From NCBI GenBank assembly GCA_016927955.1, contig JAFGLR010000027.1, positions 1 to 49,190 on the forward strand: a DNA stretch of 49,190 nucleotides. The letters are read 5' to 3'. Both the position numbers and the translations under genes were made by a program. Shown here piece after piece: positions 1 through 49,190 of this stretch (its first letter is position 1; every line of letters starts with the position of its first letter). The DNA comes from Dehalococcoidales bacterium. Lineage in GTDB: Bacteria > Chloroflexota > Dehalococcoidia > Dehalococcoidales > JAFGLR01. Under the pieces are notes generated by a model. It saw nothing but the letters and a program-made list of their open reading frames with translations. It was not told the DNA's origin and searched no databases.

Positions 1-72
1 TCCCCCTTTTAAGGCAACCACTATTTATCATTGTTTGCCTCTGTTACGGGGAGTATATCTTTTTTGGCACTG

Positions 73-2706
73 CTATGCAACAGAACCTTCTTTCTTTGTT
101 GCTACCACTCGGTAACATGTTACCTCCCGTTTATGAATAATACAGACCGGTATTTTTAATTGAGCCGCCGTTTTTAAGTCCTGCGGCGATGGTGAGGGGT
201 TAGTAGGATGCTCATGTACCAGGGCGTGTATTTTGCCGTTATCGCAGGTCAGCGGGATGCTGATAGAGTGAGCCTCGCCGGTAATATCCGCCTGTTTACG
301 GAGCTGCCCGCCGGCCTTACATACCAGGTAACCCGTCTCTTCTTCGAGCCTAACCTGCACCGAATTTGAGATGGCCTTCTTGACCTTTGCCGGCACCGTT
401 TCATTCATCTGTGGTAGTACTTCTTTCTCCGCTGCGCCGTTTTCCACCGGTACGCCCATTTTCCTGAACTGCTCGACTTCCTGCTCGTATATTGTGCGAT
501 TTTCTTTGTCCAGTCGGATAATCGTCTTATGGACCGTCGGCTTGCCGTGGCAATGTCCGCCGACCCAATGCTGCCCTTTACGGCAACAAATAAAGACCAT
601 CAAATGCGGGTCCGGTTTCAATACCCGGAACGTGCCCGGCCGGCACTCTTTGGAATCGATATAATGCTTGACGATAGAATTAGGATAAATCTCGATTAAC
701 TTCGGCACCGGCTTTTCGTTCAACTTAACGATGTCCTGGATACTAAAAAGACTTTTGTAATGCTCATTTTCATCCGCGGCGATATGATTAAATACCCGCC
801 CGACTTCCTTATAGCCGCCCTGGGCGGCCTCTTTCGCCAGCTCTTTATACCGGCGGACCGCACCCTGCTCGTCTTCCATTAAATACTTGACCGCAGCGAT
901 TAACCGGCTGGTATTTTCCCGGTTGAGGTCGAACAGCTCCGCCAGTACCATCAAAGACCGGACTGCACTATCGAATAGGTGCTCTTTGGTCGCTCTGGAT
1001 TCCGGCATAAAGCTGCCCTGGGCGGGCGGTGGGCTATCGATGACTTTCTGTGCATAGCCGGACAATATACCGGCGATTCGCTTGCCGGACCGGCTGTGCT
1101 CATCCAGAGCCTTGAGTATTTTCTCCTGGAACGGGTTTAATTCCCGCTCCAGCATCGATGATTGATTGAGATATTTCTCCACGGTCATGCCAGGCGTTTT
1201 TTTAATTCCGCTGTAAACGGAGACGGCCTTCGCCATATCATCGCCGATGATATAATCCGGGTCCCGCTGGCCGGATAGTGCCATGCTTTCCGCTTTGGCC
1301 AGCATGCCGAGACTTCCTGTAATGCCATTAAAGATATTCTTGACGTTGACGTCGGTCGACTCGAAGTATTTCTCCGCTAACCGGAGGCCTGTATCGCCTT
1401 TAAACGTGGCAACGAATAACGCCATCGCCGCTCTCCGGACGCCGTCCTGGGATAACTGGCCCTGGGCATCTACGAGTCTTGCTTGCTCATTCGCCGGCAG
1501 CTTGTTTAAAAAAGCTGTAACAAAAGATTTGTTCCGCGCGGACCGTATCGCGTCTTCGATTCCCTCGCCCTCGAGGACGTTTAAACCGTTTAGCATTTCG
1601 GAGGTTATCTTATCCGCGTCGGTACGGGCTTTCTCGATAGCCGATGATTCGATGGCGGCCGGGGCGTTGGCTTCCTGGGCGAAATCCTTTAGCGACACTT
1701 TGGTCAGCAGCTCCCGGACGAGCACCGGCATTTTTAGCTTTTCGACTTGTTTCGTCTCTATACCATAAGCCGGTGCGATTTTTAGCAGTGCCTTGCGGTA
1801 AGCGGCATATTTGTCCGGGAAATTGCCGGCTGCTAAAAGCAAAGCCATAGTGCGACCGTTTCCGCTTAACACGTTATAATGAGCATCGATAATCGGAGCT
1901 CCCCGGTCGATGCTCTGAAAATCGACCAGTAGTGCATCAGGTTCTAAATTTTGGCTTATATTCTGCACCTGGAGCCGCTGGGCTGCCCGTTCCCGAATAC
2001 GTGGTTGCAATTCCGCCGGATATTTCGGGTTAGGTGTGAAAGTATGCGGGTCATGTGACACGTTCAGCTTATCGCCCTCGATAATACGGTACTCAAAATC
2101 GTATTTTGTGACGCCGGTCTGGCCGAAAGCGGTGGTTTTATTGCTGACGGTCCGCTTTTTAGCGTCAACTTGCTTCAACAACTCGTCGATGGTGTCCGGC
2201 AGCGACTTTATGGACGGTGATATCGCCTCTGTTTTCTCAGTATGTGTTACCGTGAAAGAGCAGGTATTGCTTTTACAATTGCCCTTGACCTTGACCATTG
2301 GGTATTTTTCGAAGAGATTTGCGATAACGTCCTCTTTTAAATGGGCTTTCGCATTGCAACTATAATAAACCGGCTCGATTTGCTTTCGCCAGTTCCGCGA
2401 CCATTTCTCGAGGTCGGGCCAGGTGCCGCCCTTACAATAAATCGTCTTGGCTTTGTTGTGGTATTCGAGGGCTTCGGTATTAAGGTCGGCCAATATTTTG
2501 CGGTGTGCCTCGTCCATCAAGGCCGTTTCCCGGGCCAGCGATGACACCATTAATAGGTGTTTCCCGAGGCAGTATTCCGGTGGGTCCAGCTCTACCTGGT
2601 TACACGGGCAGGAATCGTCGCCGGCGTGCAATGTAACATGGGAAAGCTCCTCGATTAATGCCCGGTACTGCCAGGTTAACATGTCGGCCGATGATTTTGT
2701 TTTCAT
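73..2706 (-). CDS. Polyvalent multidomain protein: DdrB-like ParB domain, ferritin-like ExxH motif, C-terminal JAB/MPN domain
   Basis: aa~200-335 SHD..NP.YP.ELQPR.R...GAPII....VLSGNGRTMAL...PVLVR (DdrB-like ParB). aa 610-650 EDEQGAVRRY...IAADENEH (ferritin/rubrerythrin-like). aa 790-843 E...HEHP....PSPQD (JAMM-like). Confidence 0.8.
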   Translation of the reverse strand: MKTKSSADMLTWQYRALIEELSHVTLHAGDDSCPCNQVELDPPEYCLGKHLLMVSSLARETALMDEAHRKILADLNTEALEYHNKAKTIYCKGGTWPDLEKWSRNWRKQIEPVYYSCNAKAHLKEDVIANLFEKYPMVKVKGNCKSNTCSFTVTHTEKTEAISPSIKSLPDTIDELLKQVDAKKRTVSNKTTAFGQTGVTKYDFEYRIIEGDKLNVSHDPHTFTPNPKYPAELQPRIRERAAQRLQVQNISQNLEPDALLVDFQSIDRGAPIIDAHYNVLSGNGRTMALLLAAGNFPDKYAAYRKALLKIAPAYGIETKQVEKLKMPVLVRELLTKVSLKDFAQEANAPAAIESSAIEKARTDADKITSEMLNGLNVLEGEGIEDAIRSARNKSFVTAFLNKLPANEQARLVDAQGQLSQDGVRRAAMALFVATFKGDTGLRLAEKYFESTDVNVKNIFNGITGSLGMLAKAESMALSGQRDPDYIIGDDMAKAVSVYSGIKKTPGMTVEKYLNQSSMLERELNPFQEKILKALDEHSRSGKRIAGILSGYAQKVIDSPPPAQGSFMPESRATKEHLFDSAVRSLMVLAELFDLNRENTSRLIAAVKYLMEDEQGAVRRYKELAKEAAQGGYKEVGRVFNHIAADENEHYKSLFSIQDIVKLNEKPVPKLIEIYPNSIVKHYIDSKECRPGTFRVLKPDPHLMVFICCRKGQHWVGGHCHGKPTVHKTIIRLDKENRTIYEQEVEQFRKMGVPVENGAAEKEVLPQMNETVPAKVKKAISNSVQVRLEEETGYLVCKAGGQLRKQADITGEAHSISIPLTCDNGKIHALVHEHPTNPSPSPQDLKTAAQLKIPVCIIHKREVTCYRVVATKKEGSVA

Positions 2707-2709
2707 AAC

Positions 2710-2922
2710 TCAATCCTTTGCTGCACTATCCGCCATTGCGAAAATTAAATTGGTTACCTCTTGGATGGCCTTCCTTTTCTCCCGGTTTTCCCGTTTACGT
2801 AATCGAGCGTTCTTTCTCCGTGCCTCTCTGCCCTGGGCGGCGGCCAGTTGCCGCTTAGCCCGGGCCAGTTCCGTTTTAAGGCTGGCTACCGGGGATGACC
2901 GCTTTGGTAAATTGCTCGACAT
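2710..2922 (-). CDS. Small, highly basic helical protein (possibly nucleic-acid binding)
   Basis: 70 aa, R/K-rich. Fills the gap between the 290-aa and 877-aa ORFs and ends 3 nt before the next start. Confidence 0.55.
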   Translation of the reverse strand: MSSNLPKRSSPVASLKTELARAKRQLAAAQGREARRKNARLRKRENREKRKAIQEVTNLIFAMADSAAKD

Positions 2923-3748
2923 CGATGCCCGCCTTCTTCATTTTTTCCATCGTCTGGTATAATTGCCATGCCCGCCCGAAATCTCCGGCAAAGACTTCCT
3001 GTTTCGCCGGCATAAAGATGTCTTTTAATGTTTTAACGCCCTCCGCGTTTTCCGAGACGAGTTTCAGAATTTCCCCGATAATGCTCATACGTCCGGACTG
3101 CGGCACCGGCCCGCCCGGATTGCCAGCTCCGCTGCCGGCTGCTGGCTCTTCTTTGACGGCATCAATAAGTGATTGCTTCAATGCCTCGCCATTTTTTTTA
3201 AACACCTCTTCAGATGCCGCGTCAATCATATCCGGCAACTTTTTCAGATATTCGGCGATAGCAGTATTTATTTTGCCGGCCATCGTCTCCGCCATCGTCC
3301 CGGCAATACGGTACTGGACTTTATCGATAAGCTCATTTTCTACCGGGTGAGGAATGATTGCCGGAAGCTCTTTTAAAATCGGCGGTAATAATGCCGCGAC
3401 TAATTCATCCAGAGTCGGCATAACAATTAATTTCTTAACCTCAGCGGCCACTTCCGCCGCGGTCGGTACCGGTTTAGCATCCATTCCTTGTAAAGTGGGC
3501 GGTAATGTTTTAATAACCTCAGCGGCGATATCGGCAGCCGTGGGTGGTTCTTTCGAAGGTGGCAGCCGCTTTAATACTTCGTCACAAATACGGTCAAGCT
3601 CGGTCTGGCCTAGCTCCGCAGCTGGAGCCGGTGACGGCTGCCGCTTGGCAACCTCAGCAGCAATAACATCGATTAAACTATCAATGTCGATAAAATTGCC
3701 ATACTTGGCTTTTATCTCTTCGGGGGTCATTTTCTTTTTAGGAACCAT
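2876..3748 (-). CDS. Hypothetical protein with proline-punctuated helical repeats
   Basis: 290 aa. RBS AAGGTG upstream. Repeats such as PTAADIAAEVIKTLP and PTAAEVAAEVKKLI. Confidence 0.75.
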   Translation of the reverse strand: MVPKKKMTPEEIKAKYGNFIDIDSLIDVIAAEVAKRQPSPAPAAELGQTELDRICDEVLKRLPPSKEPPTAADIAAEVIKTLPPTLQGMDAKPVPTAAEVAAEVKKLIVMPTLDELVAALLPPILKELPAIIPHPVENELIDKVQYRIAGTMAETMAGKINTAIAEYLKKLPDMIDAASEEVFKKNGEALKQSLIDAVKEEPAAGSGAGNPGGPVPQSGRMSIIGEILKLVSENAEGVKTLKDIFMPAKQEVFAGDFGRAWQLYQTMEKMKKAGIDVEQFTKAVIPGSQP

Positions 3749-3763
3749 CGCTCACCTTCTTGC

Positions 3764-4150
3764 TTATTTCGTTAAGGTAACCTTGATAACTCCCGGTTGG
3801 CCGCTGGTATCCGGCCCTGGTACGGTCGGAACGGTTACGGATTCTCTTATATCCAACTCCTCGTGCAGTAACGCCCGGCCTTCCGGTGTCAGGCTTTTAA
3901 CCCATTCGCTGAAATAAACCGCGCGGTCTTCCGGGGAAAAATCGGCGATAGACTTCGGGGTTTTGGCCAACTCTTCTTTTAGAGTGGCGTTTTCGGTTTT
4001 CAGGGCATCGATATCGGCGTCTTTCTGTTTGATTATTTCTTCATTCAAAGTCGCGGAGGGTTGCTTGAACTGGTTTAATACTTCCTCCGGTACCGACAAG
4101 TACATCGTCCCGTCCTGTCTCTTCAAGATTGGAATTTCTAATTTGTCCAT
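3764..4150 (-). CDS. Hypothetical coiled-coil protein
   Basis: 128 aa. GGGAGG RBS before the ATG. Heptad-like stretch IDALKTENATLKEEL. Confidence 0.75.
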   Translation of the reverse strand: MDKLEIPILKRQDGTMYLSVPEEVLNQFKQPSATLNEEIIKQKDADIDALKTENATLKEELAKTPKSIADFSPEDRAVYFSEWVKSLTPEGRALLHEELDIRESVTVPTVPGPDTSGQPGVIKVTLTK

Positions 4151-4289
4151 TATTTGCCTCCCTGGTATTCACTATTTCATTCGCCTCGCTCGGGCGCATA
4201 TCGTGGCTGAAAATTAGATGGTATAACAGATTAGCTTTACGCGAGAAAGCCGTAGGGCACAGGGTACACACAACATACCTCTTACTCAT
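4041..4289 (-). CDS. C2H2 zinc-finger protein
   Basis: CTLCPTAFSRKANLLYHLIFSH matches C-x2-C-x3-F-x5-L-x2-H-x4-H. First ORF downstream of a sigma70-like promoter. Confidence 0.7.
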   Translation of the reverse strand: MSKRYVVCTLCPTAFSRKANLLYHLIFSHDMRPSEANEIVNTREANNGQIRNSNLEETGRDDVLVGTGGSIKPVQATLRDFE

Positions 4290-4333
4290 TTGCCAGTTAT
4301 CCGATACATCCGATAAATCCCATATTTAGCTAA

Positions 4334-4363
4334 ACCATAGAACAATAGTGCTAATATTGTCAA
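4334..4363 (-). promoter_or_regulatory. Putative sigma70 promoter of the element operon
   Basis: TTGACA (4363-4358), an 18-nt spacer, then TATGGT, about 45 nt upstream of the zinc-finger ORF. Confidence 0.5.
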
Positions 4364-4517
4364 GGTTTGAGGCTAAAACTGCAAATCCTTCCAATTTTAA
4401 CGTGTTTTTAGGCATTTATGCGCCGGTAAACGGTTTTTCAAATCAGTTATTGTCAAGTATTGAGCCTGACACAACAGATAAACTGGCGGCGGGGGTGTAT
4501 GTATGCGCACGGAGTGA

Positions 4518-4590
4518 TAAGGAAAGTGTAAGGAAAGTGTAAGGATTTTAGAAGTGAGACGACATAATAATGTAAGGAAAGTGTAAGGAA
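4518..4590. repeat. Phased 11-bp direct repeats TAAGGAAAGTG (iteron/operator-like)
   Basis: Copies start at 4518, 4529, 4540 (partial), 4573 and 4584 (partial). An AT-rich tract follows. Confidence 0.85.
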
Positions 4591-4737
4591 TATTGAGAGT
4601 AATAATAATTTACTTAAAGCTAAAAATATTAATTCCTTCCATTCTTATCACTAAAATTTAATACCCACCCCTCTAATGCACGGTGTTAACCGGCGCAGTA
4701 AGTAGAGTAAACACCATTGAAAAATGGTTTTTGAGAT

Positions 4738-5685
4738 TTATTTTATATGTAGATTATCGACCGGGCTAAATGGACGTTGTTTTATCGCGGCCTCTTCGCA
4801 GCTGATAGTTTTTACATATTTATACGTCATATCCCGGGTACTGTGGCCCATTAAGTTCTGAACATCCAGCTCATTGGCACCGTTCCGCAGCGACATTGTC
4901 CCGAATGTATGCCGGAAAGTATGCGGCGAGCACCGGACGTCCTGGAGACGGGCCAGCCGGGCCAACTGCTGAATTGCCGATTGCACACCGCGCCACTTTA
5001 GCGGCCGGCGTTCCTCGTTAACCCATAAACAACCGAGACCGTCTTTCCGGAGCAGCAGGTATTTAACCAGGGCCAGCGCCGATTTCTTGCCGAAAGATAC
5101 CAATCTCTCCTTTTGCCCCTTCCCCATGACCCGGATAAAAAAGCGGTCGAAATCGATGTCCGCGAGCTGTATGCCGGCCAGTTCTGACAAGCGCAGACCG
5201 GTATCGGTAAAAAGTAAGACGATAGCCCGGTTACGGACCCCGAGAAAAGTACCGGCAGGGCAAAGGTTTGCCAGGGTTTCGATATGCTCCGGTCGAAACG
5301 GCTTGATAATGGTCTGAGGCACTTTAGGCGGCCGCATGGGCGACATCGGGTTTTTTTCGATAACCTTAATTTCGTCGCTGGCCAGCCAGTTAAACCAGAC
5401 GTTAAGAGTGCCGTAATGGCTGTGGACCGTCCCTGGCTTGTGATTTTCCTGCAGCGCGGCAATATAAAGCCGGACGTGCATCGTGGTGACCTGGTCGAGG
5501 TAGTAAAGCCTGCCGTGGTGGCAGCACTCGATGAACTTTCCGATTTTTTGGGCGTAATCGATTAGAGTTTTCGGGGATAGCCCGTCTGTTTTCCGGGAAA
5601 GTAAAAATAATTTTAGATGCGTGGCCAGTTTGCCATCATTAAGGTTTACCAGGGAAGGGGACAATATAGATTTAGAATCAAACAC
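4738..5685 (-). CDS. Tyrosine recombinase/integrase (XerC/D-like)
   Basis: Catalytic residues R (TGLRLSE), K (GKGQK), HxxR (HTFRH), H (LMGH) and Y (YKYV) are all present. Likely GTG start at 5685 behind a GGAGGAG RBS. Confidence 0.95.
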   Translation of the reverse strand: MFDSKSILSPSLVNLNDGKLATHLKLFLLSRKTDGLSPKTLIDYAQKIGKFIECCHHGRLYYLDQVTTMHVRLYIAALQENHKPGTVHSHYGTLNVWFNWLASDEIKVIEKNPMSPMRPPKVPQTIIKPFRPEHIETLANLCPAGTFLGVRNRAIVLLFTDTGLRLSELAGIQLADIDFDRFFIRVMGKGQKERLVSFGKKSALALVKYLLLRKDGLGCLWVNEERRPLKWRGVQSAIQQLARLARLQDVRCSPHTFRHTFGTMSLRNGANELDVQNLMGHSTRDMTYKYVKTISCEEAAIKQRPFSPVDNLHIK

Positions 5686-5700
5686 CGCTGTAACTCCTCC

Positions 5701-5763
5701 ATTAATGTGCGTTAGAGCACACACGGCTGAGTGTGAGATTTTGCCGTATTAATGTGCGCTAGA
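5701..5763. repeat. 16-bp direct repeat pair near the att site
   Basis: ATTAATGTGCGTTAGA (5701-5716) and ATTAATGTGCGCTAGA (5748-5763) are 15/16 identical. Confidence 0.75.
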
Positions 5764-5804
5764 ACGCATATTTTCCGGCTACCAGCGGCATTTTAGAATC
5801 AAAG

Positions 5805-5878
5805 TCGGGGTGGACGGATTTGAACCGTCGGCCACCTGAACCCCATTCAGGTGCGCTACCAGGCTGCGCTACACCCCG
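5805..5878 (-). tRNA. tRNA-Pro(GGG); CCA not encoded
   Basis: Minus strand reads CGGGGTGTAGCGCAGCCTGGTAGCGCA-CCTGA-ATGGGGT-TCAGG...GGTTCAAATCC...CACCCCGA: a full cloverleaf with anticodon GGG. Confidence 0.97.
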
Positions 5879-6103
5879 TCAACCAGCGTTTTTATATTAG
5901 CATAATTACCGTTCATTTTTAAAGTCAGCCCAACGTACGAATGTATTACCATCTTATTCGGGACAAATAAAACGTTATCCCGATATGAAATTGTTCGCCG
6001 AATTGAAATCGTCCCCTATTTCGGTTATAAATATAGTTATACAATTGTTGGAAAGTATTAAGATATTATAAACGGGATTTATCTGTAGTTACGGAGAGAT
6101 AGA

Positions 6104-7393
6104 GTGTCAAAAAAACAAATCGAAAAAATGCAAAAAGAGTATACCAAGCCCCAGCTTTCCCGCTGGCAGCAGCAAAAAAAACGCCAGCGGATAATTATGT
6201 TCAGCGGCATCGCGTTAATTGCGGTGGTTATAATAGGACTTTTTACGGCATGGTTTATGGAAGAGCAATGGCCGTATTATAAAACGGTTATAAATGTTAA
6301 CGGCGAAAAGATAACCATGAGACAATATGTTAATACACTAAAAGCTATGAGTGAAGGTCAAGACGAGAATCTCATTTATAATTATGCCATGCAGGTGGAT
6401 TCTTTAATGGCGCAAACTGAAATACTTAAGCAGGCAGCCGCTGACGTAAATATTACGGTTACTAATGAAGAAGTTAATACCAAACTCAAAGAATATAACC
6501 TCACTGAAGGCTGGGCAACATATATTAGAATGCAGCTGCTCTCCGGAAAAATGCTAGAAGAATATTTTATACCTCAAGTACCTGCAACCGTAGAACAACG
6601 TGACATCGAGGTGATGTTTTTAGAGAGTGATGCCCAGGTTAATGCAATCAGAGCGTTACTTGATGAAGGGCAGAGTTTTGCAGACCTGGCTGCACAATAT
6701 TCCCTGGATGATTATTCAAAGAACCAAAAAGGTGCGATAGGGATGCACCCTAAAGAAATATTTATAAATTTACTTGGCTCAAATGTTCCCGGGGAATATG
6801 CCTTTTCCAGTGATACCGGCAGTCTGAGCCAGGGGCGTCCCGATGCCGACAAAGAAAAAGCGGTAGGTTACTGGTTAATTATGCTTATTGAAACAGGCAC
6901 CGGAGAATATGAGGGTCAGGCTAATGTTAGGGCAATGTTGCTGGGCAGCGAAGCGGAAGCTAATCAGGTACGTAAGGATATTGTAGAAAACGGGCAGGAT
7001 TTCGGCACTATAGCTGACGAGAAATCTCAGTATAGCTCCGGCGGTAAAAATGGTGGTCTAATCGGGTTTGTCAGTGAAGATTCGGAGATATTCAGCGCTG
7101 CATTTAAAAATGCTGCTTTTAGTCTGGAAATCGGTGAAATTAGCCAGCCGGTTAAAGATATTACTATGACCACTAAAGGCGGCTCCTGGTTAATAAAAGT
7201 AGTTGGTGCTGACAGTGATGCAGCAATTTCAGATGAGGATAAAAACACAATAGCCAATGCTTTATTTGAGCTATGGTTCCTATCGGCACAAGCTAATGCA
7301 GTAGTTGTCGATTCAATATCGGCTACGGATGTAATTAATGGTAATGAGGGAGCTCCTATTTTCTGGGCTATATCTAAAGTAATTGGTGATTAA
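6104..7393 (+). CDS. Membrane-anchored SurA/PrsA-like peptidyl-prolyl isomerase with two parvulin domains
   Basis: N-terminal TM helix. Parvulin motifs FADLAAQYSLD...G and FGTIADEKS...GGLIG...F..AAFSL..GEISQPV. Confidence 0.85.
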   Translation: MSKKQIEKMQKEYTKPQLSRWQQQKKRQRIIMFSGIALIAVVIIGLFTAWFMEEQWPYYKTVINVNGEKITMRQYVNTLKAMSEGQDENLIYNYAMQVDSLMAQTEILKQAAADVNITVTNEEVNTKLKEYNLTEGWATYIRMQLLSGKMLEEYFIPQVPATVEQRDIEVMFLESDAQVNAIRALLDEGQSFADLAAQYSLDDYSKNQKGAIGMHPKEIFINLLGSNVPGEYAFSSDTGSLSQGRPDADKEKAVGYWLIMLIETGTGEYEGQANVRAMLLGSEAEANQVRKDIVENGQDFGTIADEKSQYSSGGKNGGLIGFVSEDSEIFSAAFKNAAFSLEIGEISQPVKDITMTTKGGSWLIKVVGADSDAAISDEDKNTIANALFELWFLSAQANAVVVDSISATDVINGNEGAPIFWAISKVIGD

Positions 7394-7401
7394 GGGGTAT
7401 C

Positions 7402-8706
7402 ATGAAGAATATTGGTATCGGGCTAATGGGGCTTGGCACTGTTGCCGGGCAAGTCGTTCAGGTGCTATTGGACGAAAAGAAAGCCAAAGTATTAGCCGAT
7501 TACGTCGGTTCGCCGGTAATCTTAAGGAAGGTTAAGGTAATCGGCGTTGATTTGGAGCGCCCGCTGGCTAAAGCTATCGACTCGAAGCTAATGACCACCG
7601 ATGAAGAAGAGTTTTTCAATACTGATGGCATAGATATCGTTGTTGAAGCTATCGGCGGTGAAAAACCTGCTTTTGAATATTTAAAGCGGGCTTTAACCGG
7701 GGGTAAACATGTTGTTACTTCAAATAAAGAGGTTATCGCCAAGCATGGTGTTGAACTATGGTCTCTTGCGGCACAGAATAATGTAGGGCTTCATTACGAA
7801 GCAAGCGCCGGAGGCGGTATTCCCTTGATCGCACCTTTCCAGCGTGATTTAGTAGCCAACCGGATTATTAGTATTCATGCGATTATCAACGGGACCACCA
7901 ACTATATACTATCACGCATGGCTAGAGAAGGCGTGGAATTTGCGACTGCTTTAAAAAAGGCCCAGGAGTTAGGCTATGCGGAATCAAACCCGCGCAATGA
8001 CCTTGATGGTATAGATGCGACTTATAAGCTGGCGATACTGGCTTCACTGGCGTTCCATTGCCAGGTACGGCCGCATGATGTTTACTGCGAGGGTGTTTCG
8101 AAACTGACCAAACGTGACTTTCAATACGCTAAAGAACTTGGTTATGCTGTTAAGTTGCTGGCGATTGCCCGGCAGGATGACAATACCATTCAGGTACGAG
8201 TCCATCCGGTCTTCCTTCCGGAGGATGCGATGCTGTCCAGTGTAGATGGTGTTTTTAATGCTATTCAGGTAGAAGGTGATTTGGTTGGTAAGTTACTATT
8301 TTATGGTCAGGGAGCCGGAGCATTTCCCACCAGCAGTGCGGTAGTCGCTGATATCGCTTCGGCGGCTAAAGATATAGTATTTAAGGTGGGAGCCGGCGGC
8401 TGGAATATAGAAACCGGTAAAATCATACGTCCAATGGCAGAAGTAGAAACCAGATATTATTTAAGAATGGAAGTTAGCGACCAGCCCGGGGTACTGGCTA
8501 AAATATCTCAGGTCCTCGGTGACCATATGATAAGCATTAATTCGATGTTGCAAAAAGAAGCTAACAGCATTACCGGAACGGCTGAAATAGTCATCATGAC
8601 TCATCTGTCTAAAGAAAAATCCGTTCAGGATGCCTTAAGTCAGCTTAAAAAGTTGCCGGTTGTTAAAGAAATATGCAACTTCGTCCGTATCGAAGACGTT
8701 ATTTAA
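7402..8706 (+). CDS. hom: Homoserine dehydrogenase with C-terminal ACT domain
   Basis: Motifs GLGTV, VVTSNK, GGGIP, NGTTNYIL, GAGAFPTSSAV and ACT-domain DQPGVLAKI. Confidence 0.96.
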   Translation: MKNIGIGLMGLGTVAGQVVQVLLDEKKAKVLADYVGSPVILRKVKVIGVDLERPLAKAIDSKLMTTDEEEFFNTDGIDIVVEAIGGEKPAFEYLKRALTGGKHVVTSNKEVIAKHGVELWSLAAQNNVGLHYEASAGGGIPLIAPFQRDLVANRIISIHAIINGTTNYILSRMAREGVEFATALKKAQELGYAESNPRNDLDGIDATYKLAILASLAFHCQVRPHDVYCEGVSKLTKRDFQYAKELGYAVKLLAIARQDDNTIQVRVHPVFLPEDAMLSSVDGVFNAIQVEGDLVGKLLFYGQGAGAFPTSSAVVADIASAAKDIVFKVGAGGWNIETGKIIRPMAEVETRYYLRMEVSDQPGVLAKISQVLGDHMISINSMLQKEANSITGTAEIVIMTHLSKEKSVQDALSQLKKLPVVKEICNFVRIEDVI

Positions 8707-20557: not shown

Positions 20558-21331
20558 TTATTCTTCCGGTGGTTTTTGTGGTTTAGATACAAATGCCTTC
20601 AATAATTCGATTGGTAATGGGAATATAATGGTGTTAGTCTTCTCGGAAGCTATTTCTGTCATTGTCTGCAAATAACGCAGTTGGATAGTGGCTGGTTCCT
20701 GTCCGATGATTTTAGCCGCATCAGCTAACCTCTGAGAAGCCTGGAATTCACCGTCAGCGTGAATAATCTTGGCACGGCGTTCACGTTCGGCTTCTGCCTG
20801 GGCTGCCATCGACCGCCTCATCGACTCAGGTAATTCAACATCCTTGATTTCAACGATGGTTACTTTAACACCCCATGGGTCGGTCTGCTCGTCAATCATC
20901 TTTTGCAGTATTTGATTGAGCTTCTCACGCTGGGTTAATAGTTCATCAAGTTCAGATTGTCCAAGAACATTCCTTACGGTTGTCTGGGAAATCAGAGAGG
21001 TTGACCGGATATGGTCTAACACTTTAACGACTGAGGCTTCCGGGTCGACGACTCTGAGATAAACAACCGCATTCACTCTTACGGTTACGTTATCTTTGGT
21101 TATGATATCCTGCGGCGGAACATCCATGGTAATAATACGCAGGTCGACTTTAACCATCCTATCAAAGAAAGGGATAATCATGAAGAAACCCGGTCCCTTG
21201 GCACCCGTTAAACGGCCAAGGCGGAAAATTACACCTCTTTCATATTCCTGCACGATCTTAATAGAGAGAGATAGAAGTATGATGATAAATATTGCTACAA
21301 CAACCCAAATAATGATTGGACCCATATACAC
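20558..21331 (-). CDS. SPFH/stomatin-like (slipin) protein
   Basis: N-terminal TM helix. Motifs EYERGVIFRLGR, ITKDNV and QAEAERERRAK. Confidence 0.95.
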   Translation of the reverse strand: MYMGPIIIWVVVAIFIIILLSLSIKIVQEYERGVIFRLGRLTGAKGPGFFMIIPFFDRMVKVDLRIITMDVPPQDIITKDNVTVRVNAVVYLRVVDPEASVVKVLDHIRSTSLISQTTVRNVLGQSELDELLTQREKLNQILQKMIDEQTDPWGVKVTIVEIKDVELPESMRRSMAAQAEAERERRAKIIHADGEFQASQRLADAAKIIGQEPATIQLRYLQTMTEIASEKTNTIIFPLPIELLKAFVSKPQKPPEE

Positions 21332-26972: not shown

Positions 26973-27554
26973 ATGAAAGCCAGAAAAGCAATCATTAAAC
27001 GCCGGACTAAAGAAACCGATATTAATCTGGAATGGAACCTGGACGGCACCGGGGATAGTAATATTAAGACCGGCATCGGCAGTTTCGACCATCTTCTTTC
27101 GCAGGTGGCAAAGCACGGCACATTTAACATAACATTAGCAGCCAGCGGGGATGACCAGCATCACCTTATTGAGGATGTAGCCCTTTGTATGGGCAAAGCT
27201 TTTAATAAAGCTCTGGGCGAAAAGATAGGTATTGTCAGAATGGCTGACGCTACCGTGCCGATGGATGAAGCTTTAGCGATGGCGGCTATCGACATTAGCG
27301 GCAGGGGATACTCCGTAATAGAACTACCGCTTAAAGGTAATGATATGGGTGGGTTTCCATCTGATTTGATTCGGCATTTCCTCGAATCATTTGCCACAGA
27401 AGGGAAAATCACTCTGCACGCCCGGATTCTTTATGGAGTTAATGACCATCACAAGGTTGAGGCTCTCTTTAAAGCACTGGGGAGGGCTTTAAAACAAGCT
27501 ACACGTATCGATGAACGCATTGGCTTACCCAGTACTAAAGGATTGTTAGAATAG
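26973..27554 (+). CDS. hisB: Imidazoleglycerol-phosphate dehydratase
   Basis: Motifs [16 protein letters not shown] and NDHHKVEA. Confidence 0.97.
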
Positions 27555-48740: not shown

Positions 48741-49190
48741 TTAAGAAACTCGGTTAATATCATCGGGCGGTATGTTTAAAAACTTGGCGGCTACTATAGG
48801 GTCAAATTGTGTGCCGGTACATCTGCGGATTTCTTCCATAGCTTCTTTTCGAGTCATTGCGGGACGGTAAGGACGGTCCGAAGTCATGGCATCATAAGCA
48901 TCGGCTACTGCAATGATTCTGGCACCCAATGGTATATCTTCTCCTACCAAATACTGGTTATGACCACTACCGTCATAATGGTCATGATGGTGTTCAATCA
49001 TTTGAACTACTTTTTCTTTAACAACCGGCCGGACGATACCTACTCCTGATTGAACATGTTGCATTATCTGTTCATATTCGACCGGTGTAAGATTATCGGG
49101 TTTATTCTGGATTAGCTGGTCGACCCCGATTTTACCAACGTCATGGAGTAAGCTACCACAACGGAGGTCTTCCAAATCTTCTTTGGACAA
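48741..49190 (-). CDS. HD-GYP domain protein, C-terminal part (5' end lies beyond the window)
   Basis: Motifs LLHDVGKIG, HHHD.YDGSG and IIAVADAYDAMTSDRPYR. Confidence 0.9.
   Translation of the reverse strand: MSKEDLEDLRCGSLLHDVGKIGVDQLIQNKPDNLTPVEYEQIMQHVQSGVGIVRPVVKEKVVQMIEHHHDHYDGSGHNQYLVGEDIPLGARIIAVADAYDAMTSDRPYRPAMTRKEAMEEIRRCTGTQFDPIVAAKFLNIPPDDINRVS

Follow-up and report, generated by a model that had tools for sequence, protein, structure and literature searches.

The window analysed here is a stretch of 49,190 nucleotides that makes up the entire contig C38 of a 2.29-Mb, 177-contig metagenome-assembled genome (MAG) of a Dehalococcoidales bacterium, with an estimated contamination of 6.3%. 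We found that its positions 88–5846 are very likely the integrase-proximal arm of a temperate, tailless provirus with a double jelly-roll (DJR) major capsid protein (MCP), inserted in the 3′ end of a tRNA-Pro(GGG) gene and split into two arms by a repeat, M. Because the window is a whole contig, the element runs off the left end of C38; its other arm, bases 89–20854 (20.8 kb) of contig C20 in the same MAG, carries the capsid gene. Without M, the provirus measures 20,766 + 5,716 = 26,482 bp, which is a lower bound. The window arm consists of an integrase gene and a minus-strand operon that ends in the gene for a polyvalent protein of 877 amino acids (aa), A877. The virus was probably membrane-containing.

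The capsid protein

The protein encoded at C20 1518–2600, outside the window, is a DJR MCP as judged by its profile and its structural model (360 aa). A search of 1.84 billion representatives with its open reading frame (ORF) yielded 86 homologues at E ≤ 1e-3, and the query was aligned with 44 near-full-length ones. The profile gave only two meaningful PDB matches, both full length and both the coat protein of Sulfolobus turreted icosahedral virus (STIV; 3j31_A and 2bbd_A, E 4e-9). Consistently, an AlphaFold (AF2) model built from the 45-sequence alignment (predicted local distance difference test score, pLDDT, 88.1; predicted template modelling score, pTM, 0.88) retrieved the STIV MCP first in Foldseek (E 2.4e-17, template modelling score, TM, 0.66/0.73), followed by PRD1 P3, PM2 P2 and Vp54 of Paramecium bursaria chlorella virus 1 (PBCV-1), while identity to the STIV MCP was only about 15%. 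The 45 members matched no Pfam family, and tblastn with the MCP found nothing in 50,697 GenBank phage records. DJR capsids are best known from archaeal viruses (STIV), tectiviruses and eukaryotic viruses.

In the capsid operon on C20, the MCP gene stands in the order X119, X211, MCP, X271, X541, X201 and four small membrane proteins with one hydrophobic segment each. X271 is a beta-rich protein of 271 aa, which might be a penton or minor capsid protein of the single jelly-roll type; its profile had no PDB match, and of its 14 members one matched PHROGs (E 0.005). X541 (541 aa) resembles a GH130-like beta-propeller and is spike-like, and X201 has a weak match to a C92 (papain-like) amidase. X541 had been considered as a portal and X201 as a prohead protease; the beta-propeller match and the merely weak amidase match led us to reject both.

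We also considered whether the element might belong to a tailed prophage or to a phage satellite that forms capsids. A cI-like repressor, a primase–helicase and an HNH protein, together with a tRNA-associated integrase, would all suit such an origin, as would the resemblance of the polyvalent core to a myovirus protein. However, Pfam and PHROGs detected none of the HK97 capsid, portal, terminase or tail families in the 39 proteins scanned from the window and C20, the MCP is absent from the phage records searched, and the DJR fold of the capsid protein led us to drop the idea, which is extremely improbable.

Borders of the provirus and features of the window

The features of the window arm, from right to left, are as follows.

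5804–5878, minus strand: intact tRNA-Pro gene, anticodon GGG; the sole tRNA called in the window and the right border of the provirus
5804–5846: att core of 43 bp, the 3′ part of tRNA-Pro, which recurs on C20
4738–5724, minus strand: intact tyrosine integrase gene, 328 aa, with Pfam and PHROG matches
4383–4647: phased 11-nt repeats and inverted copies, in the gap that separates the integrase gene from the operon promoter
4334–4371, minus strand: sigma-70-like promoter (4363–4334; TTGACA, 18 nt, TATGGT) from a promoter scan
4041–4289, minus strand: C2H2-type zinc-finger protein, 82 aa, first gene of the operon, recognised by a Pfam match below cut-off and by positional relatives
3764–4150, minus strand: A128, an acidic coiled-coil-like protein of 128 aa with weak coiled-coil family matches only
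2876–3748, minus strand: A290, 290 aa, a family kept by its position ahead of the polyvalent gene
2710–2922, minus strand: A70, a basic protein of 70 aa (K+R 27%)
73–2706, minus strand: A877, the polyvalent protein, 877 aa, last gene of the operon, with Pfam and PHROG matches
88–115, minus strand: X119-like gene start (ribosome-binding site (RBS), ATG and 9 codons), cut off by M; ORF read directly from the sequence
1–87: end of repeat M, insertion sequence (IS)-like or bounded by terminal inverted repeats (TIRs); its tip is the 13-mer at 75–87, and the provirus proper starts at 88

The integrase matched Pfam Phage_integrase (E 1.9e-29) together with a SAM-like N-domain, and the PHROG integrase family (E 2.2e-46). 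The 3′ end of tRNA-Pro faces the integrase gene. A BLAST search of the tRNA region against the MAG found the 43-bp core twice on C20, at 20855–20897 (43/43) and 27226–27268 (41/43), where ARAGORN called no tRNA; because no tRNA is present there, we take these two copies as att copies. Thus the integrase lies beside an intact tRNA gene whose 3′ end is directly repeated at the far border, on C20. A preliminary description of the window had noted an intact integrase beside tRNA-Pro and phased repeats, both of which were borne out, and had asked for a duplicated tRNA-Pro 3′ end, which thus turned up on another contig of the MAG. The integrase would recombine the viral site on a circular genome with the 43-bp tRNA core; the duplicated cores are observed, and catalysis is predicted.

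Read in the orientation of the window, the C20 array runs from host-like genes on contig C155 (CMD, Usp and MBL families) through an att copy (41/43), an element that we call Y and a second att copy (43/43) to 20.8 kb of viral genes and the end of C20. The viral genes open with an XRE regulator and a cI-like helix-turn-helix (HTH)/S24 repressor, which would keep the provirus silent. Next come a DUF3854/DUF927 primase–helicase, a DNA methylase, a Pol-beta-thumb protein, a serine recombinase and an HNH protein, and the arm ends in a block of genes of no assigned family, with the capsid gene within it. The same description had reported no repressor, terminase, capsid or conjugation gene in the part it could see, and Pfam and PHROGs indeed matched no such family among the six provirus proteins of the window; the absence of a classical repressor does not extend to the whole element, given the cI-like S24 repressor on C20.

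GC content is 0.50–0.53 across positions 1–4000 and, for the most part, 0.40–0.47 in the rest of the window. Copies of the 11-nt unit GTAAGGAAAGT lie at 4517, 4528 and 4572 next to partial units, and inverted ones at 4383–4397 and 4631–4647; these phased repeats are candidate protein-binding sites.

Other observations concern the neighbouring contigs and C20. Window positions 49104–49190 and C157 1–87 overlap head-to-tail by 87 nt, and the right end of C20 overlaps C155 1–81 head-to-tail by 81 nt; each pair of contigs is probably neighbouring in the chromosome. As to the host, a neighbouring homoserine dehydrogenase has as its best named homologue a protein labelled Dehalococcoidia (68% identity), and genomes of this order are small (0.6–2.8 Mb). 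Between the promoter block of C20 (see below) and X211 there are very small basic, Cys-containing ORFs (664–744 and 783–869; 26 and 28 aa). A 512-aa protein with 10 hydrophobic segments is encoded convergently with the capsid operon (C20 8101–9639, minus strand) and matches PHROG families of no assigned function. Element Y (C20 20898–27225; 6.3 kb, GC 0.29–0.37) shares the 43-bp att site in a tandem arrangement and codes for a tyrosine integrase (34% identity to that of the window), a 360-aa protein without assigned function, a 605-aa NACHT/STAND NTPase and a PaREP1-family protein. Y resembles a small island carrying defence genes.

Synteny in related loci links the two arms

Related loci were searched with a profile from an 11-sequence subset of the MCP alignment, the full 45 being too divergent. 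Of the loci matched, 1 came from IMG/VR, 58 from metagenomes and 6 from species-representative genomes, making 64 distinct loci, as L027 is the same record as L009. The six species-representative loci come from five MAGs, titled Deltaproteobacteria (two contigs of one MAG), Dehalococcoidia, Geobacteraceae, Dehalogenimonas and Alphaproteobacteria, and the Dehalogenimonas-titled locus lies inside an 875-kb contig. Because MCP loci occur in MAGs with proteobacterial titles, the clade is not confined to Chloroflexota, binning errors aside, and the family proposed earlier as specific to this phylum is not so.

An A877-family match accompanied the MCP in all 17 loci with at least 4 kb upstream (tblastn), and in 21 of 22 with at least 3 kb upstream, the miss being L031; L019 and L032 have it on the opposite strand. 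The X211 family, which adjoins the MCP on C20, was present in 33 of the 44 loci with at least 700 bp upstream, and the X271 family followed the MCP in 11 of 19 with at least 2 kb downstream (23 ORFs by iterated hidden Markov model (HMM) search). The zinc-finger family (3 loci), the X119 family (3) and the A128 family (8) were recovered by the same kind of search in positions as in the MAG. L023 shows the order without insertion: polyvalent gene, JAB, X119, X211, MCP, X271. If M is left out, about 1.5 kb separate the polyvalent stop from the MCP start, the same as in L029. Furthermore, a 34-bp promoter block at window 4338–4371 is 100% identical to C20 536–503, ahead of the capsid operon. Because of the locus synteny and the identical promoter block, we place the window operon in the same provirus, upstream of the capsid operon; the shared block also suggests that the two operons are probably co-expressed late.

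Several relatives have features of their own. G201 (L009 plus L079), from IMG/VR, is a complete relative of 29,814 bp with direct terminal repeats, rated 100% complete. In L021, an IS200/IS605 pair (TnpA and a TnpB/Cas12f-like protein, 2254–3772) lies just before the polyvalent gene (3750–7790), whose SNF2 helicase domain is split by an intein-like LAGLIDADG domain. tRNA genes (Met, Ile) are predicted inside the related viral loci L057 (7263–7337) and L068 (12358–12434).

The window arm might instead be a separate integrative element, the third in a tandem array, its left end missing, that merely resembles the C20 provirus. The arms do lie on different contigs, and the X119 start occurs twice, with window 103–140 and C20 143–181 (RBS and start) 87% identical, which could mean two related elements. 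Nevertheless, the polyvalent and MCP operons form one unit in 17 of 17 related loci, the C20 provirus lacks, on that side, its own integrase beside a tRNA or att copy, no paralogue of any other provirus gene was found in the MAG, and the spacing without M agrees with that in L029. We therefore regard a separate element as quite improbable.

Repeat M at the break between the arms

The window arm breaks off at position 87/88. Positions 1–87 are the reverse complement of C39 4635–4721 (100%), diverging at base 88, and C20 1–88 is an imperfect inverted copy of the same end with the same 14-nt tip, so that C38, C39 and C20 each end 87–88 nt inside one repeat with inverted ends. Contigs that end inside a two-copy repeat are the usual behaviour of de Bruijn assemblers. 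C39 carries host genes (alaS, a ROK kinase and a membrane protein). M is probably an IS-like or TIR-bounded element that separates the polyvalent gene from X119 by its insertion and has another copy next to C39. Its imperfect inverted ends are about 60 nt long, with a gene start about 58 nt inside each end; one copy lies in the provirus and the other beside the membrane-protein gene near alaS. The interior of M is absent from the MAG contigs, and a search of window 1–87 against 200 genomes of the order gave two 18–21-nt matches (E about 0.006), taken as chance. We also considered M as a segment inverted by the serine recombinase of C20; this is less likely, as the same M end abuts host contig C39.

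Another possibility is that the provirus is a defective, rearranged remnant: the IS-like repeat would have recombined with its copy near alaS on C39, leaving arms that are not adjacent and that can no longer be excised. The M end joining both window 88 and C39, the lack of a target duplication around M and the truncated X119-like start at 88–115 speak for it. Against it, the large genes (integrase, polyvalent protein, MCP and primase–helicase) are all open, the att cores are identical (43/43), and a two-copy IS yields the same assembly graph without any rearrangement. A remnant is unlikely, though it keeps appreciable weight.

Some observations weigh against a single provirus interrupted by M. 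The two arms lie on different contigs of a MAG with the contamination given above, and no bridging read or contig was seen. The same M end also joins a host contig, so the provirus may be split by rearrangement, and no target-site duplication was seen flanking M. No arm-type repeats common to the integrase side and the C20 att side of the provirus were found. M is unassembled, and a packaging ATPase could in principle sit inside it. Excision and activity of the provirus are predictions from sequence. Even so, a DJR provirus at tRNA-Pro with the window arm as its integrase-proximal part remains very likely.

The polyvalent protein A877

The domains recognised in A877 are as follows.

About 2302–2706, minus strand: N-terminal Cys/His four-helix domain, from alignment and model
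1711–2109, minus strand: DdrB-like ParB domain (Pfam ddrB-ParB, E 6.5e-26)
712–870, minus strand: rubrerythrin-like segment, residues 613–665 (Pfam Rubrerythrin, E 6.7e-7, above cut-off)
About 109–348, minus strand: C-terminal JAB domain (Prok-JAB, E 0.024, below cut-off, weak)

Over 387 residues (171–557), the protein shares 31% identity with the DdrB proteins of phages P1 and P7 (E between about 1e-29 and 3e-30). The N-terminal domain contains eleven residues invariant in 18 sequences (Q13, H27, C33, P34, C35, E44, C46, K49, E60, R107 and K108), and its model is a four-helix bundle (pLDDT 84); a fold search gave no PDB match at E ≤ 0.001, generic four-helix bundles only, and there was no PDB sequence match. 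The effector domains behind the conserved N-domain differ among relatives: ParB, ArdC-N, M78, RadC, D12 methyltransferase (MTase), PBECR3, HNH, SNF2 and DUF2958. In G201, for example, ArdC-N and M78 take the place of ParB, and JAB is a separate small protein. The rubrerythrin/ferritin-like segment of A877 has ExxH-type motifs, and a rubrerythrin-like region (query 650–760) recurs beside the JAB domain in several relatives. No relatives of A877 were found in a viral-contig search, and none of 60 relatives' genomes had a match (1 of 61 counting its own genome, G000).

A877 thus combines several effector domains, including a DdrB-like ParB, in one polypeptide, and its gene lies beside virion genes. 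By analogy with the Dar proteins of P1, A877 would enter the particle by means of its N-domain, be delivered with the DNA, and act on entry against restriction or other defences. We consider this proposal evenly balanced. Virion incorporation and an anti-defence role are argued by analogy, and the detection of Pfam ddrB-ParB in only 7 of the 17 scanned related loci weighs against them. Because the effector content varies, a role in conflict is favoured over an essential role in packaging.

The small proteins ahead of the polyvalent gene

The 82-aa protein matched Pfam zf-C2H2 below the cut-off (E 5.9e-4; 20.6 bits against 25.2), but His24 and His29 are invariant in all four aligned proteins (the window protein and three positional relatives), and the Cys pair is present in three, the fourth sequence being cut at its 5′ end. 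The A128 family always lies upstream of the polyvalent gene and on the same strand in its eight related loci. For A290, no Pfam or PHROG family was found, and its best atlas score, 0.80, was set aside; in a comparison with the profile of 10 positional analogues, residues 110–287 matched with an hhalign probability of 95.8% (E 7e-9). Locus L069 has a basic 72-aa ORF in the position of A70, with similarity that is not significant (E 1.0). Direct BLASTP with A290, A128 and A70 as queries found nothing significant among the proteins in matching positions of L009 and L069, and the kinship of A290 therefore rests on profile comparison.

The operon read in the preliminary description, namely a zinc finger, a coiled coil, a basic peptide and a polyvalent protein, was recovered, the zinc finger by its invariant histidines in spite of a sub-threshold Pfam score, the coiled coil only weakly, the basic peptide by its composition and the polyvalent protein by its strong ddrB-ParB match. 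The helical-repeat protein of that description corresponds to A290, for which such a fold is a prediction. The zinc-finger, coiled-coil, 290-aa and basic proteins may be accessory factors in DNA binding, incorporation or adaptation of the polyvalent protein.

Search for a packaging ATPase

The preliminary description had suggested looking for a capsid or a packaging ATPase; a capsid protein was found on C20 and a packaging ATPase was not. Pox_A32 gave nothing over the cut-off in the MAG. The called genes of the visible 26.5-kb provirus contain no canonical Walker A motif, the only two motif matches lying in stop-to-stop frames of 96 and 62 codons. Likewise, no FtsK/HerA/A32 family was detected in the 17 Pfam-scanned related loci, where thresholds ranged from E ≤ 0.01 to E ≤ 1e-4 and one scan took only ORFs of at least 130 aa; the only P-loop families there were DnaB/AAA_25 (L009), IstB/DnaA-like (L057) and SNF2 (L021). 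The complete G201 (29,814 bp) had no A32-like match at E ≤ 1. An FtsK/HerA-type (A32-like) packaging ATPase, expected of DJR-MCP viruses (Varidnaviria, Bamfordvirae), was thus not found beside the DJR-fold MCP, nor was the STIV-like packaging ATPase of the STIV group (Turriviridae). DNA would accordingly be packaged here, as in the relatives, by means other than an FtsK/HerA-type ATPase.

The operon could then be genome-handling machinery, in which a ParB-type clamp, the basic protein, the zinc finger and the coiled coil make up for the missing ATPase by condensing or partitioning the viral DNA. This would fit the lack of a packaging ATPase found in the clade, the position of the operon always directly before the capsid genes, and the Odin group, which also lacks the ATPase and conserves a ParB-like nuclease (PMC5894146). 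Nevertheless, ParB is dispensable, since Pfam ddrB-ParB occurs in only 7 of 17 relatives and the others have ArdC-N, RadC, PBECR3/HNH or SNF2, a pattern typical of conflict proteins, and the closest characterised homologue, P1 DdrB, is part of an anti-restriction system. We judge this possibility rather unlikely.

A broader and tentative proposal, which we hold to be unlikely as a whole though worth stating, is that the provirus belongs to a large, uncultured clade of ATPase-less DJR viruses of about 26–30 kb with a conserved operon ahead of the capsid genes (zinc finger, coiled coil, 290-aa protein, basic peptide and polyvalent protein), in which the invariant N-domain loads interchangeable anti-defence enzymes into a tailless, membrane-containing virion, while the operon may also condense the nucleoprotein in place of a motor. 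If true, no earlier case of non-tailed viruses that inject an arsenal like the Dar proteins of P1 would precede them.

Comparison with known systems

Bacterial DJR viruses without tails are seldom recognised in genome sequences. A brief literature search found no published description of a DJR provirus in Chloroflexi or Dehalococcoidia; the nearest is the sphaerolipovirus-like provirus of Dehalococcoides sp. CBDB1, with a single jelly-roll VP16-like capsid, an FtsK-like ATPase and a serine integrase (PMC4158269). Both are non-tailed jelly-roll proviruses in a Dehalococcoidia genome, whereas the one described here has a DJR MCP, no ATPase that we could find and a tyrosine integrase.

STIV (Turriviridae) and the STIV group provide the best MCP profile and fold match, and many STIV-group members share a tyrosine integrase with the provirus. 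However, that group keeps a packaging ATPase closely resembling the one in STIV (PMC5894146), none was found here, no other genes are common, and the MCPs are only distantly similar, at the identity given above.

With P1 DdrB, A877 shares a homologous ParB domain and following region, a multi-domain architecture and a gene beside virion genes. P1 Dar proteins including DdrB are internal head proteins co-ejected with DNA (PMC12810830), and DdrB-like ParB domains usually adjoin virion genes (PMC5512222). Iyer et al. (2017) predicted virion packaging for phage polyvalent proteins and tied most of the phage-encoded ones to portal–terminase phages (PMC5512222); their JAB, ArdC-N, MTase and nuclease partners recur in the relatives studied here. 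P1 is a tailed myovirus with portal and terminase, whereas the carrier here is a tailless DJR virus. The text of PMC5512222 does not contain the words 'jelly-roll', 'tectivir' or 'rubrerythrin', and mentions neither a four-helix Cys/His N-domain nor a rubrerythrin-like segment. Polyvalent proteins of the DdrB/ArdC/RadC type, described earlier for tailed phages and conjugative elements, are thus a fixed feature of a non-tailed virus group, which raises the question of how a virus without tail or portal delivers proteins with its DNA. In the same vein, the archaeal or eukaryotic-virus modules expected by the preliminary description are represented by the DJR capsid, but the polyvalent core, homologous to DdrB of phage P1, is a bacterial-phage module.

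The closest published counterpart is the Odin group (Yutin et al. 2018; PMC5894146), a set of DJR viruses recovered from sediment metagenomes that includes Huginn virus (PMC9246712). Its MCPs are closest to those of STIV and PM2, no packaging ATPase is present, and a small conserved gene precedes the MCP; ParB-like and PD-(D/E)XK nucleases are conserved, a single jelly-roll protein is predicted, integrases are sporadic, some members are integrated, and genomes measure 7–11 kb (PMC5894146). The Odin group and Flavobacterium-infecting, lipid-containing phage (FLiP) are the known exceptions among DJR viruses in having no packaging ATPase (PMC5894146). Similarly, our MCP is structurally nearest to that of STIV, with PM2 among the matches; no ATPase was detected; X211 stands right before the MCP, like the published 'cons1' gene, to which it is likened by position; a ParB-like nuclease is represented by the ddrB-ParB domain of the window protein and of 7 of 17 relatives; and members likewise come from sediment or subsurface metagenomes, some of them integrated, and with an integrase in scattered cases. 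For PD-(D/E)XK nucleases, there was a weak ERCC4 match in G201 (E 2e-4, below cut-off) and none was seen in the MAG provirus. The differences are in size (7–11 kb as published, as against at least 26.5 kb here and 29.8 kb in G201, about three times as much), in the setting of ParB, which here is one among several domains of a large polyvalent protein whose N-domain is conserved, and in the zinc-finger, coiled-coil and 290-aa operon ahead of the polyvalent gene.

The proposal of a provirus or integrative element therefore held for a provirus that is neither a tailed phage nor an integrative conjugative element, and gave way where it called the kind undescribed, since the ATPase-less DJR Odin group had been published (PMC5894146). 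The provirus is a variant of that group, likened to it by described features. Our analysis connects a 'dark' operon near the integrase with a capsid type and defines a clade with 64 public relatives, including a complete 29.8-kb genome, and it asks how a genome of 26–30 kb is encapsidated by a DJR virus without a packaging ATPase.

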